Shown here in pieces: positions 26,858 through 33,862 of a DNA stretch of 64,000 nt (positions within the stretch are counted from its first letter, which is position 1; every line of letters starts with the position of its first letter). The notes beneath the pieces were generated by a model. It made no database searches and was not told the origin of the DNA. It saw only the letters and a list, made by a program, of their open reading frames with translations. Both the position numbers and the translations under genes were made by a program. Source of the DNA: Ralstonia pickettii. GTDB taxonomy: Bacteria; Pseudomonadota; Gammaproteobacteria; Burkholderiales; Burkholderiaceae. Location: positions 1,030,412-1,094,411 of the forward strand of contig CP158804.1 of NCBI GenBank assembly GCA_050987995.1, given 5' to 3'.

Positions 26858-28087
26858 TCAGCCCTTCACGCACACCACCTGCCGCAGGGTATGCACGATC
26901 TCCACCAGGTCTGACTGCGCCGCCATCACCGCGTCGATGTCCTTGTAGGCCATCGGAATCTCGTCGATCACGGCGGCATCCTTGCGGCATTCGACGCCCT
27001 CGGTCGCATGCACCTGGTCGGCCACGGTAAAGCGGCGCTTGGCCTCGCTGCGGCTCATGGTGCGGCCGGCGCCGTGGCTGCAAGAGCAGAACGACTCCGG
27101 ATTGCCCTTGCCGCGCACGATAAACGAGCGCGCGCCCATCGATCCGGGGATGATGCCGAGTTCGCCCTTGCGCGCACTGACCGCGCCCTTGCGCGTCACC
27201 AGCACGTCCTTGCCGAAATGGTGTTCCTTCTGCACGTAGTTGTGATGGCAGTTGACTGCCTCCAACTCAGCCTTGAACGGCTTGCGCAGCACGCGCTGCG
27301 CCGCGGCCAGCACGGCCTCCATCATCAGCTCGCGGTTGCGGCGCGCGTACGCCTGGGCCCACGACACCGCATAGACGTAGTCCTCGTAATGCTCGGAGCC
27401 CTCGGTCAGGTAGGCCAGGTCGCGGTCCGGCAGGTTGGCCAGGTGCTGGCGCATGTCCTGCTGCGCCAGTGAGATGAAGGTGGTGCCGATGGCATTGCCG
27501 ACACCGCGCGAGCCGCTGTGCAGCATGAACCAGACGCTGCCTGCTTCATCCAGGCACACCTCGATGAAGTGATTGCCGGTGCCGAGCGTACCCAGGTGGC
27601 TGCGGTGGTTGGTGCGCGCCAGGTGCGGATATTTGTCGGTGATGCGCCGAAAGCCCGGCGCCATCTCGGCCCATGCCGCATCGACATGTGCGGGGGCCGA
27701 GCCCCAGGCCCCCTGGTCGCGCCGCCCGCCCTGCGCGCTGCGGCCGTGGGGCACGGCGTGCTCGATCGCGCTGCGTAGCTGGCCCAGGTTGTCGGGCAGG
27801 TCGGAAGCGGTCAGCGAGGTCTTCACGGCCATCATGCCGCAGCCGATATCCACGCCTACCGCGGCCGGGATCACGGCGCCCACGGTGGGGATCACCGAGC
27901 CGATGGTCGAACCCTTGCCCAGGTGTACATCCGGCATCACCGCGAGATGGCGGAAGATAAACGGCATCTGCGCGGTATTGACCAGTTGTGCCCGGGCAGC
28001 GTCCTCCACCGGGACGCCACGGGTCCACAGCTTGACCGGCTTGCCGGCGCCGGTGTCGAGTACGTCGTAGTGGTGCTTGGCCGTCAT
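26858..28087 (-). CDS. rtcB: RNA-splicing ligase RtcB (paralog 1)
   Basis: From the ATG at 28087 (MTAKHHYDVL…). Metal-binding and catalytic motifs are present: …HLGKGSTIGSVIP…GTGNHFIEVC…NCHHNY…SCSHGAGR…. Confidence 0.9.
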   Translation of the reverse strand: MTAKHHYDVLDTGAGKPVKLWTRGVPVEDAARAQLVNTAQMPFIFRHLAVMPDVHLGKGSTIGSVIPTVGAVIPAAVGVDIGCGMMAVKTSLTASDLPDNLGQLRSAIEHAVPHGRSAQGGRRDQGAWGSAPAHVDAAWAEMAPGFRRITDKYPHLARTNHRSHLGTLGTGNHFIEVCLDEAGSVWFMLHSGSRGVGNAIGTTFISLAQQDMRQHLANLPDRDLAYLTEGSEHYEDYVYAVSWAQAYARRNRELMMEAVLAAAQRVLRKPFKAELEAVNCHHNYVQKEHHFGKDVLVTRKGAVSARKGELGIIPGSMGARSFIVRGKGNPESFCSCSHGAGRTMSRSEAKRRFTVADQVHATEGVECRKDAAVIDEIPMAYKDIDAVMAAQSDLVEIVHTLRQVVCVKG

Positions 28088-28163
28088 GGTCGCCCCTGGC
28101 TCTGTCGTCGCGGACTGCACGTTAGACGGCCAGTGCCAGCCAAGGATTCCCCTGCAGGAGGCC

Positions 28164-29129
28164 TTATCCCAGCAAGAAGCTGGCAAAAGCGCCCAGGTCG
28201 ACATTGCCCCCGGATACGATGATGCCCACGCGCTTGCCCTTCACATCGAGCTTGCCCTGCAGCACCGCGGCGGCGGCCAGGCAGCCGGTAGGCTCGACTA
28301 CGATCTTCATGCGGCCGGCAAAGAACTTCATGGTTTCGACCAGCTCCGCATCCGACACGGTGACGATATCCGTCACCAGTTCGCGGATCACGGCAAAGGT
28401 GTGGTTGCCCAGGAACGGCGTCTGCGCGCCATCGGCGATGGTGCGCGGGGTGTCGATGCGCACGATTTCGCCGCTGCGCAGGCTTTGCTGGCCGTCGTTA
28501 CCGGCCTCCGGCTCCACGCCGTAGACCGCGCAGCCAGGCGCCATCGCCTTCGCCGCGACCGCACAGCCCGACAGCAGCCCGCCGCCGCCCAGGCATACCA
28601 CCAGCATGTCGAGCGGACCGGTTTCCTCCAGCAATTCCTTGGCCGCCGTGCCCTGCCCGGCCATCACATGCGGATGGTCGTACGGCGGGATCAGCGTCAT
28701 GCCGCGCTCTGCGGCAATGCTCCGCCCCAGCGCCTCGCGGTCATCCTTGTAGCGGTCGAACAGTACCACCTCGGCACCATAGCCGCGCGTGGCCTCGATC
28801 TTGATCGCGGGGGCGTCCTGCGGCATCACGATCACGGCCTGCACGCCCAGCAGCCGCGCCGACAGCGCAATCGCCTGCGCATGGTTGCCCGAGGAGAACG
28901 CCAGCACACCGCCCGCCTTCTGCTGCGGTGTGAACTGGGCGATGGCGTTGTAGGCGCCGCGGAACTTGAAGGCGCCGATGCGCTGGAAGTTCTCGCACTT
29001 GAAGAAGAGTTGCGCCCCGGTGGCGGCGTCGGCGGTCGAGGAAGTCAGCACCGGGGTGCGGTGCGCGGCGTCGCGGATGCGGTCGTGGGCGGCGGCTACG
29101 TCGTTGAAGGTGATGGGCAAGGTGGTCAT
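28164..29129 (-). CDS. PLP-dependent threonine/serine dehydratase family protein (fold type II)
   Basis: From the ATG at 29129 (MTTLPITFNDVAAAHDRI…). PLP-lysine motif …CENFQRIGAFKFRGA…, then GNHAQAIA, and the glycine loop …VCLGGGGLLSG…. Confidence 0.8.
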   Translation of the reverse strand: MTTLPITFNDVAAAHDRIRDAAHRTPVLTSSTADAATGAQLFFKCENFQRIGAFKFRGAYNAIAQFTPQQKAGGVLAFSSGNHAQAIALSARLLGVQAVIVMPQDAPAIKIEATRGYGAEVVLFDRYKDDREALGRSIAAERGMTLIPPYDHPHVMAGQGTAAKELLEETGPLDMLVVCLGGGGLLSGCAVAAKAMAPGCAVYGVEPEAGNDGQQSLRSGEIVRIDTPRTIADGAQTPFLGNHTFAVIRELVTDIVTVSDAELVETMKFFAGRMKIVVEPTGCLAAAAVLQGKLDVKGKRVGIIVSGGNVDLGAFASFLLG

Positions 29130-32573: not shown

Positions 32574-32632
32574 CCAGTGACGGGCGTACCGGTATCGACA
32601 TCGATATCGGTACGCCACTATGAATTCAGGAA

Positions 32633-33862
32633 ATGATGATGAGTGAAATCGATTATCAGGTCATGGCGCTCGCCCACGGCAAGCCTGTGAAGATGTGGAC
32701 GCAAGGTGTGGCCGTTGAAGAAGACGCACGCCGCCAGCTGCGCAACACGGCAAGCATGCCGTTCATCTATCGGCATCTGGCGGTGATGCCCGATGTGCAT
32801 CTGGGCAAGGGCTCGACGATCGGCAGCGTGATCCCCACCAGGGGCGCGATCATCCCGGCAGCAGTCGGTGTCGACATCGGCTGCGGCATGATGGCCGTGC
32901 GCACGACGCTCAAGGCTGCCGAACTGCCCGATTCGCTGGCCGGGCTGCGCAGCGCGATCGAGACGGCCGTGCCGCATGGCCGGGCGCCGGGCCGCCGCGA
33001 TCCGGGCGCTTGGGGCGATCGCGCACCCCATCATGTGGACGATGTCTGGAAAACGCTCGTGCCGGGGTTCCGGCGGCTTGTGGAAAAGTACCCGAAGCTC
33101 GAGCGCACCAACAACTACGTGCACCTGGGCACGCTCGGTACCGGCAACCACTTCATCGAGGTGTGCCTGGATGAGGCCGACAGCGTCTGGTTCATGCTCC
33201 ATAGCGGCTCGCGTGGAGTTGGAAATGCTATCGGCTCGCTGTTCATTGAGCTTGCCCAGCAGGACATGCGCCAGCACATCGCGAACCTGCCGGACCGAGA
33301 TCTCGCGTACTTCGAGGAAGGCAGCCAGCACTTCGACGACTATGTCGAGGCGGTGGGCTGGGCGCAGGAGTACGCGCGCCGCAACCGCGAGGTCATGATG
33401 GACGCCGTGATTGCGGTTGCGCGTAGCGTGATCGGCAAGCCGTTCGGTATCGACGAGCACGCGGTGAACTGCCACCACAACTACGTGCAGAAGGAGCGCC
33501 ACTTCGGCGAAGACGTGTTCGTGACCCGCAAGGGCGCCGTGTCGGCACAGAAGGGACAGCTCGGCATCATTCCAGGGTCGATGGGCGCGAAAAGCTTCAT
33601 CGTGCGCGGCCTCGGCAATCCCGAGAGCTTCTGCTCGTGCAGCCACGGCGCCGGCCGCACGATGAGCCGTAACGAAGCGAAGCGCCGCTTCACGGTGGCT
33701 GACCACGTCAAGGCCACCGCCCACGTCGAATGTCGCAAGGACGCCGCCGTGATCGACGAGATCCCGATGGCCTACAAGGACATCGATGCGGTCATGGCCG
33801 CGCAGCGCAGCCTGGTGGAGGTGGTCCACACGTTGCGGCAGGTGGTGTGTGTGAAGGGTTAA
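32633..33862 (+). CDS. rtcB: RNA-splicing ligase RtcB (paralog 2)
   Basis: 409 aa. Roughly 75-80% identical to paralog 1 by eye, with identical catalytic motifs. The C-terminal 60 aa are near-identical. Confidence 0.9.
   Translation: MMMSEIDYQVMALAHGKPVKMWTQGVAVEEDARRQLRNTASMPFIYRHLAVMPDVHLGKGSTIGSVIPTRGAIIPAAVGVDIGCGMMAVRTTLKAAELPDSLAGLRSAIETAVPHGRAPGRRDPGAWGDRAPHHVDDVWKTLVPGFRRLVEKYPKLERTNNYVHLGTLGTGNHFIEVCLDEADSVWFMLHSGSRGVGNAIGSLFIELAQQDMRQHIANLPDRDLAYFEEGSQHFDDYVEAVGWAQEYARRNREVMMDAVIAVARSVIGKPFGIDEHAVNCHHNYVQKERHFGEDVFVTRKGAVSAQKGQLGIIPGSMGAKSFIVRGLGNPESFCSCSHGAGRTMSRNEAKRRFTVADHVKATAHVECRKDAAVIDEIPMAYKDIDAVMAAQRSLVEVVHTLRQVVCVKG

Follow-up and report, generated by a model that had tools for sequence, protein, structure and literature searches.

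The window analysed here, a stretch of 64,000 nucleotides (nt) of contig CP158804.1 from the Ralstonia pickettii assembly GCA_050987995.1 (positions 1,030,412 to 1,094,411), contains at 29140-33951 what is very probably a self-contained RNA-damage-response cassette of the Band-7/b7a-tRNA/RtcB type (b7a-tRNA denoting a 'band 7-associated tRNA'), obtained by horizontal transfer from a Burkholderia-like donor and inserted between a gene for a methyl-accepting chemotaxis protein (MCP) and a resident PALP-rtcB gene pair. The cassette, 4.8 kb long by its blastn limits, comprises rtcR, a leader, a Band-7 gene, a second rtcB gene (rtcB-2) and a terminator, and its core matches the Band-7/b7a-tRNA/RtcB system, as in Pseudomonas aeruginosa PA4581-PA4585. 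That the locus has the look of a single system is due to the cassette having landed beside an unrelated metabolic gene and an older resident RtcB.

Gene content and probable insertion of the cassette

Gene calling with Pfam and NCBIfam, for which public gene calls served as a boundary check, placed rtcR on the minus strand at 29168-30778 (536 aa, NF038308) and, divergently on the plus strand, a Band-7/SPFH gene at 31428-32573 (381 aa, PF01145, E 4e-27) and rtcB-2 at 32639-33862 (407 aa, PF01139, 1e-129), which encodes an RNA 3'-phosphate/5'-OH ligase, starts 65 nt downstream of the Band-7 gene and is followed by a GC-rich terminator-like hairpin (33868-33896, plus strand) between the convergent rtcB-2 and MCP genes. 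On the other side of rtcR, and also on the minus strand, lie PALP (28164-29129, 321 aa, PF00291), encoding an enzyme dependent on pyridoxal phosphate (PLP), and rtcB-1 (26858-28087, 409 aa, PF01139, E 6e-133 with Pfam). Identical gene boundaries are present in the public gene calls of a Cupriavidus necator contig of 99% identity, and an earlier note on this DNA had the positions right for each of the five genes as well as for the sigma54-type promoter, the tRNA mimic and the long structured leader.

Window positions 26862-29139 align by blastn to 7226-4947 of the C. taiwanensis locus L092, and 33952-35732 to 4778-3005 of the same locus; as these two segments are only ~170 nt apart in C. taiwanensis, 29140-33951 is taken to be a 4.8-kb insertion, and it follows from an insertion at this site that the order of rtcR, PLP gene and rtcB is secondary. 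From 29201 to 33858 the window shares 79.7% DNA identity with the rtcR-leader-band7-rtcB region of Burkholderia cenocepacia, Band-7 and RtcB-2 are restricted to a few C. necator assemblies with their next relatives (~80-85%) in Burkholderia/Paraburkholderia, RtcB-2 is 85.5% identical to the cassette RtcB of B. cenocepacia, and the window RtcR is 84% identical to Burkholderia RtcR and only 64% to that of C. basilensis. Typical C. necator strains are without the cassette and carry PALP-RtcB without RtcR.

The possibility that RtcB-1 is a recent duplicate of RtcB-2 was rejected, the two being 78% identical and having different phylogenetic affinities. Both proteins retain every catalytic residue that was compared with E. 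coli RtcB, namely D75, C78, N167, H168, H185, R189, H281, H337, R341 and R345, the roles of which were reportedly assigned in work of the Shuman laboratory. A lone RtcB, 80% identical to RtcB-2, is encoded on plasmid p2 of Paraburkholderia sp. PGU19 (L002, 8000-9217), where RtcR, Band-7 and the tRNA-like RNA are all absent within 8 kb of it.

Conservation of the unit in other genomes

A one-genome-per-species scan with an alignment of 34 diverse Band-7 members returned 80 loci at 45-79% identity from beta- and gammaproteobacteria, as well as one Chloroflexota and one Moduliflexus metagenome-assembled genome (MAG); full-length Band-7 homologues in linked loci are 45-82% identical. In most of the 80 loci RtcB follows Band-7, and nearly all have, 250-650 nt ahead of Band-7 and on its strand, a tRNA or an element resembling one. 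The full arrangement of RtcR on the minus strand, a leader of 640-720 nt, and Band-7 and RtcB on the plus strand is found in Burkholderia, Pseudomonas, Accumulibacter, Undibacterium and others. The window shares the features by which the system is recognised, namely an RtcB adjoining Band-7, a Band-7 protein of ~380 aa from the slipin clade and an adjacent tRNA-like non-coding RNA (ncRNA). The divergent unit that the earlier note described, in which RtcR and a sigma54 promoter stand ahead of a leader containing the tRNA mimic, the SPFH protein and RtcB, is real, and it is conserved across loci. The SPFH-RtcB-RtcR linkage recurs in many genomes, but the PLP gene is present in none of the 80 Band-7 loci.

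Recurrent neighbours in these loci are RtcA (13/80), the RlaP nucleotidyltransferase PF10127 (14/80), an HNH endonuclease (9/80) and a small treble-clef zinc protein. The absence of RtcA and Rsr from the window, which had also been claimed, was borne out, as no tblastn match to E. coli RtcA or to C. basilensis Rsr (Ro60) was obtained anywhere in the 64 kb; neither RlaP nor HNH endonuclease genes occur in the window. In the Pseudomonas-type loci L008-L011 a treble-clef zinc protein of ~120 aa (PF13451) fills a 450-nt gap between Band-7 and RtcB, and neither the window nor Burkholderia encodes this protein.

The resident PALP-rtcB-1 pair

An alternative view of the locus treats it as a single, non-canonical regulon of RtcR that integrates all five genes, the PLP dehydratase and both RtcBs included, and assigns the PLP enzyme a role in RNA repair. 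This view draws on gene order: rtcR, PALP and rtcB-1 run in one direction, the rtcR-PALP gap being 38 nt and the PALP-rtcB-1 gap 76 nt, with no terminator detected. Given the 38-nt gap and no detected terminator, PALP and rtcB-1 are, also in the reading preferred here, probably now read through from rtcR. PALP orthologues of 93-94% identity in C. necator and C. taiwanensis adjoin RtcB, so this adjacency is kept, albeit without RtcR. In Anabaena sp. PCC 7120 the TrcR translational-stress regulon likewise unites, among the de-repressed genes, the trn tRNA operon, rtcB, the slipin gene alr0740, the 'threonine dehydratase' gene all0262 and the RidA gene all0767 (PMC10272220), a likeness to the PLP-lyase/RtcB/slipin neighbourhood that is treated here as coincidence because of the PLP gene's absence from every one of the 80 Band-7 loci. 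The same absence, together with the position of the gene in a resident pair flanking the 4.8-kb insertion that created its juxtaposition with rtcR, speaks against the membership of the PLP dehydratase and the first RtcB in the module that had been suggested. PALP furthermore passes the threo-3-hydroxy-L-aspartate ammonia-lyase equivalog NF005454 (575 bits, cut-off 452), its Ralstonia orthologue (75.5% identical) resides in a metabolic regulator-lyase-RidA operon, and it is not beside the RtcB-1 orthologue in C. pinatubonensis or C. basilensis. We therefore regard the integrated regulon as very improbable and, on synteny, reject the PLP enzyme as a component of the system; PALP-RtcB-1 is, judging from these comparisons, a resident Cupriavidus gene pair outside the cassette system.

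Orthologues of RtcB-1 are found in C. necator, C. taiwanensis and C. alkaliphilus (94-95% identity), C. pinatubonensis (86%) and C. basilensis (81%), in the context MCP-RtcB in C. pinatubonensis and MCP-PALP-RtcB in C. taiwanensis. At the corresponding site in C. basilensis (L089/L090, 4072-11133) stands a complete operon, with rtcR divergent from rsr (vWA_Ro60), two YrlA copies, rtcB and rtcA, directly adjoining fliR, the YrlA-like RNAs scoring 71.2 and 32.4 bits with Rfam. RtcB-1 thus appears to be the resident Cupriavidus RtcB, a remnant of an ancestral rsr-YrlA-rtcBA operon, and the site next to the flagellar genes seems to have housed an Rtc locus of long standing, of which decay in the C. 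necator lineage left an orphan rtcB.

RtcR and the sigma54 promoter

The window RtcR, an enhancer-binding activator of sigma54 promoters, contains the CARF-like domain PF06956 (1e-81), the sigma54-interaction domain PF00158 (2e-50) and a lid domain, and passes the RtcR equivalog NF038308 with 838 bits against a cut-off of 650. Of the features of an Rtc system, the RtcR domain set (CARF-like, AAA+ sigma54-interaction and DNA-binding) is therefore present, as is a candidate sigma54 -24/-12 element, while the RNA 3'-phosphate cyclase RtcA is missing. The element, TGGCACGCTCTTCGCA at 30916-30931 on the plus strand, has its -24 GG and -12 GC correctly spaced, and as a one-mismatch match to the sigma54 consensus it is not significant by itself in so GC-rich a window; further one-mismatch matches occur at 10649-10664 (minus strand) and 37585-37600 (plus strand). 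Intergenic analysis of the 33 loci with a divergent upstream rtcR, a count which includes L001, L003 and L004, detected TGGCAC-N5-TCGC at the equivalent position in 24. The distance to the rtcR start codon is 130-155 nt in most of the 24 and reaches 282 nt at the maximum, and in 22 the element is located 456-572 nt upstream of the Band-7 start, with distances of 870 and 951 nt in the remaining two. Pairwise alignment with B. cenocepacia moreover showed the element kept and its flanks diverged. Because of this conservation in RtcR-linked loci the putative sigma54 promoter is considered supported. A scan for sigma70 promoters between 26000 and 36000 found nothing, leaving the promoter of rtcR itself unlocated.

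The b7a-tRNA

The b7a-tRNA occupies 31106-31178 on the plus strand, as delimited by ARAGORN, the Rfam tRNA model and a covariance model (R1) built from 15 tRNA-like elements of Band-7 loci. ARAGORN called a tRNA at 31107-31178 with an impossible 2-nt 'anticodon', an oddity explained by a UUCG tetraloop that caps a 6-bp stem in place of an anticodon loop (GUCGGC-UUCG-GCCGAC, 31133-31148), and the Rfam tRNA model gave 45.2 bits for the same interval against a gathering score of 29. With R1 the window copy scores 84.3 bits, and a high-scoring copy, mostly of 55-84 bits, is present upstream of Band-7 in ~70 of the 80 loci. The fold is strongly supported by covariation, in that 89% of cells are paired, both partners have changed in 13 of 22 pairs, and none of 500 shuffles reaches an equal value; all six pairs of the anticodon-equivalent stem covary, and the D- and T-arms are almost invariant across homologues. 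Many RtcR-linked loci have UUCG or GAAA as the loop (GAAA in Burkholderia), and elsewhere the loop is of 7 nt with assorted 'anticodons'.

It might be argued that 31107-31178 is an ordinary tRNA gene or pseudogene which is intergenic by chance, given that it exceeds the Rfam tRNA gathering score. However, it has neither the 7-nt anticodon loop nor the 7-bp acceptor and 3' CCA of a canonical decoding tRNA: the loop is of 4 nt and holds no anticodon, position 1-72 of the acceptor is a C.A combination, no CCA is encoded, and 8-10 of 15 homologues leave the three outermost positions of the acceptor unpaired. Its position and strand upstream of Band-7 are, in addition, shared by ~70 loci across beta- and gammaproteobacteria, and a chance tRNA gene is consequently so improbable that we set it aside. 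Since an anticodon loop, a paired outer acceptor and CCA are all lacking, the b7a-tRNA is, on the features of its sequence, a structural tRNA mimic and not a decoder. A permuted domain of the YrlA type, which would take its T-arm from unit B and its D-arm from unit C, was also considered and rejected, as it scored 16.9 bits and the cloverleaf at 31106-31178 fits better.

Eight loci combine RtcR and Band-7 with no detectable b7a-tRNA (L021, L031, L040, L041, L043, L047, L048 and L049), and loci without it belong to Pseudomonas entomophila/soli, Lonsdalea, Klebsiella, Superficieibacter, Mangrovibacter and Providencia. No RtcB is found within 10 kb in L031, L041, L043, L047 and L048. Neither YrlA nor another relevant RNA was detected at the Rfam gathering threshold in L021, L031, L040, L041, L043, L047 and L049, in a search that left out L038, L044 and L048.

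Leader domains outside the b7a-tRNA

The leader as a whole (30941-31427, 487 nt) folds more stably than shuffled sequence (z = -3.7), and alignment of 17 leaders from promoter to start codon demonstrated that the architecture of the entire ~490 nt is conserved, beyond the tRNA-like unit. Its 5' domain (30935-31058, plus strand), defined by RNAalifold and a second covariance model (R2), includes hairpin P2, in which 30969-30973 pairs with 30983-30987 (CAGGG/CCCUG, covarying), and helix P3, formed by the strands CUGGUGC (30988-30994) and GUAUGCCGCC (31027-31036) around a variable hairpin. P3 contains U.G and G.U pairs and a 2-nt bulge, and virtually no variation exists in its strands GGUGC and G(U/C)AUGCC, while the distal stem varies in sequence in a compensating manner; over 16 loci, RNAalifold found double changes at 14 of 21 predicted pairs of the domain. 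R2 scores 91 bits at the window and matches 40 further loci at E<0.01, always immediately upstream of tRNA-like units; the matches include loci without RtcR, plus the Pseudomonas loci L021 and L040, which have no tRNA-like RNA and retain the 5' domain at 91.8 and 84.4 bits, respectively. No Rfam family matches the domain at E<=10.

Between the 5' domain and the b7a-tRNA lies a degenerate first tRNA-like unit (31057-31102, plus strand), a minihelix of acceptor and T-arm in which GGGGUGC pairs with GCAUCCC and the T-arm reads CCCGGG-UUCGACU-CCCGGG. It shows one compensatory change with respect to B. cenocepacia (U-A to C-G) and a weak mascRNA-like match in Rfam (22.7 bits, E 0.04), and it corresponds to a complete cloverleaf in Pseudomonas-type loci and to a minihelix in Burkholderia and the window. 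Downstream of the b7a-tRNA, the 3' domain (31178-31410, plus strand) consists of a small hairpin (31178-31194), the motif GCAGUAC (31208-31214) and a long-range helix between CCGCCGG (31215-31221) and CCGGCGG (31397-31403) that encloses a GC-rich insert of ~170 nt, and is followed by the ribosome-binding site of the Band-7 gene (31415-31424, plus strand). The long-range helix is part of the minimum-free-energy fold and is re-formed in other lineages by at least four further sequence pairs, namely GUCGGCGU/ACGCCGAC, GCCGGUG/CACCGGC, CAGGGUG/CACCCUG and AAGGGUGG/CCACCCUU. A generalisation of a GYAGUA motif with this helix to all 80 loci was not upheld, as a simple script found helices of at least 7 bp in 32 loci and in 22 with shuffled tails; support for the helix, so far as these sequences indicate, holds only in the closer, mostly RtcR-linked clade.

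The tRNA-like units could also be viewed as cis-acting punctuation, whereby cleavage of the RNase P/Z type would mature and stabilise the band7-rtcB mRNA, as mascRNA does in MALAT1, without any trans-acting ribonucleoprotein (RNP). Their location inside the 5' leader on the mRNA strand is as expected from this, the first unit is an acceptor/T-arm minihelix, that is a minimal substrate of the RNase P type with weak resemblance to mascRNA, and the 3' domain would furnish the processed mRNA with a structured 5' end. However, the second unit is near-invariant between distant taxa in its D-arm, T-arm and elbow nucleotides, which exceeds what a processing signal needs, and the bulged helix of the 5' domain, being invariant, points to a partner that binds it specifically. 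The interchange of b7a-tRNA and YrlA beside Rsr or Band-7, as reported in a preprint (bioRxiv 10.1101/312249), and locus L026, where Band-7, b7a-tRNA and Rsr are combined, likewise argue for a role in trans, and we consider purely cis-acting punctuation rather doubtful.

The conservation of the whole leader, the ~120-nt 5' domain, the degenerate second tRNA-like unit and the 3' domain are possibly new, the 5' domain being the part of the leader most likely to be so; as far as checked, the conserved 5' and 3' domains fall outside the published b7a-tRNA description.

The Band-7 protein

The Band-7 protein is 99% identical to a C. necator 'slipin family protein', a name borne by thousands of homologues (565 representatives at E<1e-30). 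Its AlphaFold model (predicted local distance difference test score, pLDDT, 87) has a beta-rich N-terminus, an SPFH core and long C-terminal helices, and Foldseek matched it to stomatin, HflK/C, prohibitin and erlin with E values of 1e-15 to 1e-9. The N-terminus, modelled as beta repeats with a pLDDT of 95.6, corresponds to internal sequence repeats in which the SPFH N-terminal beta unit occurs three times (residues 9-52, 77-120 and 152-195, window 31428-32012) with the motif G.L...G.....L.PG, and stands where stomatin and HflK/C have their membrane anchor. Repeat domains of the type at the N-terminus of the major vault protein (MVP) are not present in it. The membrane tethering suggested in the earlier note is unsupported, as no transmembrane or hydrophobic segment was found in the protein (best 19-residue Kyte-Doolittle mean 1.44), and the model predicts a soluble SPFH protein. 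With the membrane SPFH family (stomatin, HflK/C, prohibitin, erlin, flotillin) and MVP it shares the SPFH core and long helices, elements from which every solved SPFH family member builds closed rings or cages, so that oligomerisation is likely for the cassette protein too; unlike the membrane SPFH proteins it has no transmembrane or hairpin anchor and carries two extra N-terminal beta units.

Band-7 genes in tRNA arrays

In many MAG loci the Band-7 gene is located inside long tRNA arrays, often with HNH and RtcB genes (L016-L020, L025, L030, L039, L045, L055-L062, L074, L077 and L081), L059 and L060 having at least 25 tRNAs upstream and/or downstream. A 94-kb contig that is putatively viral (L095, IMGVR_UViG_3300007072_000340) carries at ~880-7014 a tRNA array, an HNH gene, a proximal tRNA-like unit and a Band-7 homologue of 39% identity; only four viral contigs hold any Band-7 homologue. 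We found no mention of a Band-7 gene in tRNA arrays in PMC8421152 or in the limited other literature searched. The window itself contains no tRNA array, the non-decoding tRNA-like units being the only such elements there.

Such arrays lend some weight to a decoy, sponge or damage-sensor role of the tRNA-like RNA, under which toxins would cleave it in place of tRNAs or its fragments would feed back on RtcR. The same holds for the normal 7-nt loop with widely varying 'anticodons' of the proximal unit in many distant loci, and array tRNAs have been proposed to act as a sponge (PMC8421152). In the window and most RtcR-linked relatives, however, the UUCG or GAAA tetraloop removes the target of anticodon nucleases, and the analogous Salmonella YrlA is not cleaved by a damage-induced nuclease (PMC7790460), which makes a decoy or sensor role unlikely for the b7a-tRNA described here.

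Comparison with known systems

Burroughs & Aravind drew attention in 2016 to the association of RtcB with a Band-7 protein and a 'band 7-associated tRNA', as relayed in a preprint (bioRxiv 10.1101/312249) in which the b7a-tRNA is proposed to be redundant with YrlA and to swap with it beside Rsr or Band-7. The locus had been put forward as a distinct and uncharacterized variant of the RNA-damage response; it is indeed experimentally uncharacterised, but not newly recognised, as the Band-7/b7a-tRNA/RtcB system had already been described according to that preprint (bioRxiv 10.1101/312249). According to the same 2018 preprint by Wang et al. the b7a-tRNA lacked experimental validation (bioRxiv 10.1101/312249), and no later experimental test was found in the literature searched. 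Between Band-7 and RtcB of L026, a locus which has a b7a-tRNA, lies a Ro60/Rsr gene (13870-15435, 64% identical to C. basilensis Rsr); this one locus with Band-7, b7a-tRNA and Rsr fits the reported occasional mixing of scaffold systems. SPFH/Band-7 and Ro/TROVE proteins are reportedly presented, in the abstract of Burroughs and Aravind, as scaffolding cofactors each with a cognate ncRNA.

In P. aeruginosa, rtcR is divergent from PA4582 (Band-7, PaFlo8)-rtcB-PA4584-rtcA, a gene set that is RtcR-regulated (PMC8619066, PMC13086221), and PA4582 is raised 3.2-fold under H2O2 (PMC1250226). This system (PA4581-PA4585 / PA14_60630) and the window have in common the RtcB gene by Band-7, the tRNA-like RNA ahead of them and the divergent RtcR with a sigma54 promoter. 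The window differs in being without RtcA, RlaP and a PA4584-type gene, in having a UUCG tetraloop in place of the anticodon loop and a degenerate first tandem unit, and in that its cassette is a recent insertion beside a second, resident RtcB.

The Salmonella-type arrangement, in which rtcR is divergent from rsr-yrlB-yrlA-rtcB-rtcA and of which C. basilensis holds a version at the orthologous chromosomal site, resembles the window in its RtcR/sigma54 control, in ncRNAs with tRNA-like modules ahead of rtcB and in a putative scaffold gene. In the window, in contrast, the scaffold is an SPFH protein and not a TROVE/vWA Ro60 ring, RtcA is absent, and the RNA is a linear series of modules as opposed to a Y RNA with a nested tRNA-like domain; no YrlA-type Y RNA was detected in the window, where the best score was 16.9 bits against a gathering score of 69, whereas the same model finds C. 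basilensis YrlA at 71.2. With the E. coli rtcBA system, likewise divergent from rtcR, a sigma54 promoter is common, RtcR is 67% and both RtcBs are ~68% identical and the catalytic residues are identical, yet that system has RtcA and is without a long leader, ncRNA or scaffold protein. The L-arrays, with HNH and RtcB (Santamaria-Gomez et al. 2021, PMC8421152), resemble the arrays within which many distant Band-7 loci are situated, and differ from the window, which has no tRNA array or HNH gene.

Proposed working of the cassette

In Salmonella and E. coli, the activating signal for RtcR consists of tRNA fragments or nicked tRNAs with 2',3'-cyclic phosphate ends (PMC7790460, PMC10159003). By analogy with these organisms, the CARF domain of the window RtcR would sense damaged RNA and RtcR would then activate the sigma54 promoter at 30916. 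The predicted transcript would open with the ~490-nt non-coding leader, made up of the 5' domain, the minihelix, the anticodon-less cloverleaf and the 3' domain, and continue into Band-7 and RtcB-2. The tRNA-like units might be excised by tRNA-processing enzymes and, with the 5' domain, bind a soluble SPFH oligomer to yield an RNP cofactor for RtcB, as modelled on Ro60-YrlA, whereupon RtcB would reseal broken tRNA or rRNA. As RtcA is lacking, the activating and ligatable ends would presumably have to carry cyclic phosphates already. The PLP lyase would be a metabolic bystander, while RtcB-1, an older ligase stripped of its native upstream region, may supply basal ligase and, more speculatively, might through co-expression with RtcR provide the RtcB needed for RtcR activation.

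Several points weigh against this scheme. Activation of E. coli RtcR needs RtcA as well as RtcB (PMC9650030), and RtcA is absent in the window; the RNP-cofactor step is an analogy with Ro60-YrlA; the proposed read-through from rtcR via PALP to rtcB-1 follows from no more than a gap of 38 nt in which no terminator was detected; and ~10 Band-7 loci have no tRNA-like RNA, which is thus not obligatory for the Band-7 protein.

We tentatively propose, as a possibility that falls short of being probable, that the leader is a processed multi-module ncRNA, the SPFH counterpart of a Y RNA, of which the ~120-nt 5' domain would dock a ring- or cage-forming SPFH protein and the tRNA-like units would recruit RtcB and tRNA-handling enzymes. 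The hallmark of the proposed docking domain would be the invariant bulged helix GGUGC...GUAUGCC. If true, both the RNA family founded by this SPFH counterpart of Y RNA and the bacterial RNP that it forms would be new.

Ten years after its prediction the Band-7/b7a-tRNA/RtcB system is still experimentally uncharacterised, and the locus described here offers a compact four-part version of it without RtcA, RlaP or a tRNA array. It also illustrates how neighbouring genes can give a false impression of belonging together, the 'PLP dehydratase in an RNA-repair operon' being an artefact of the site at which the cassette inserted. C. necator, the species in which the locus sits, is genetically tractable, and its typical strains, which lack the cassette and keep the resident RtcB, constitute a nearly isogenic natural control. 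From the 5' domain through the two tRNA-like units to the long-range helix of the 3' domain, the anatomy of the leader provides concrete RNA species and mutations by which the function of the system can be tested.

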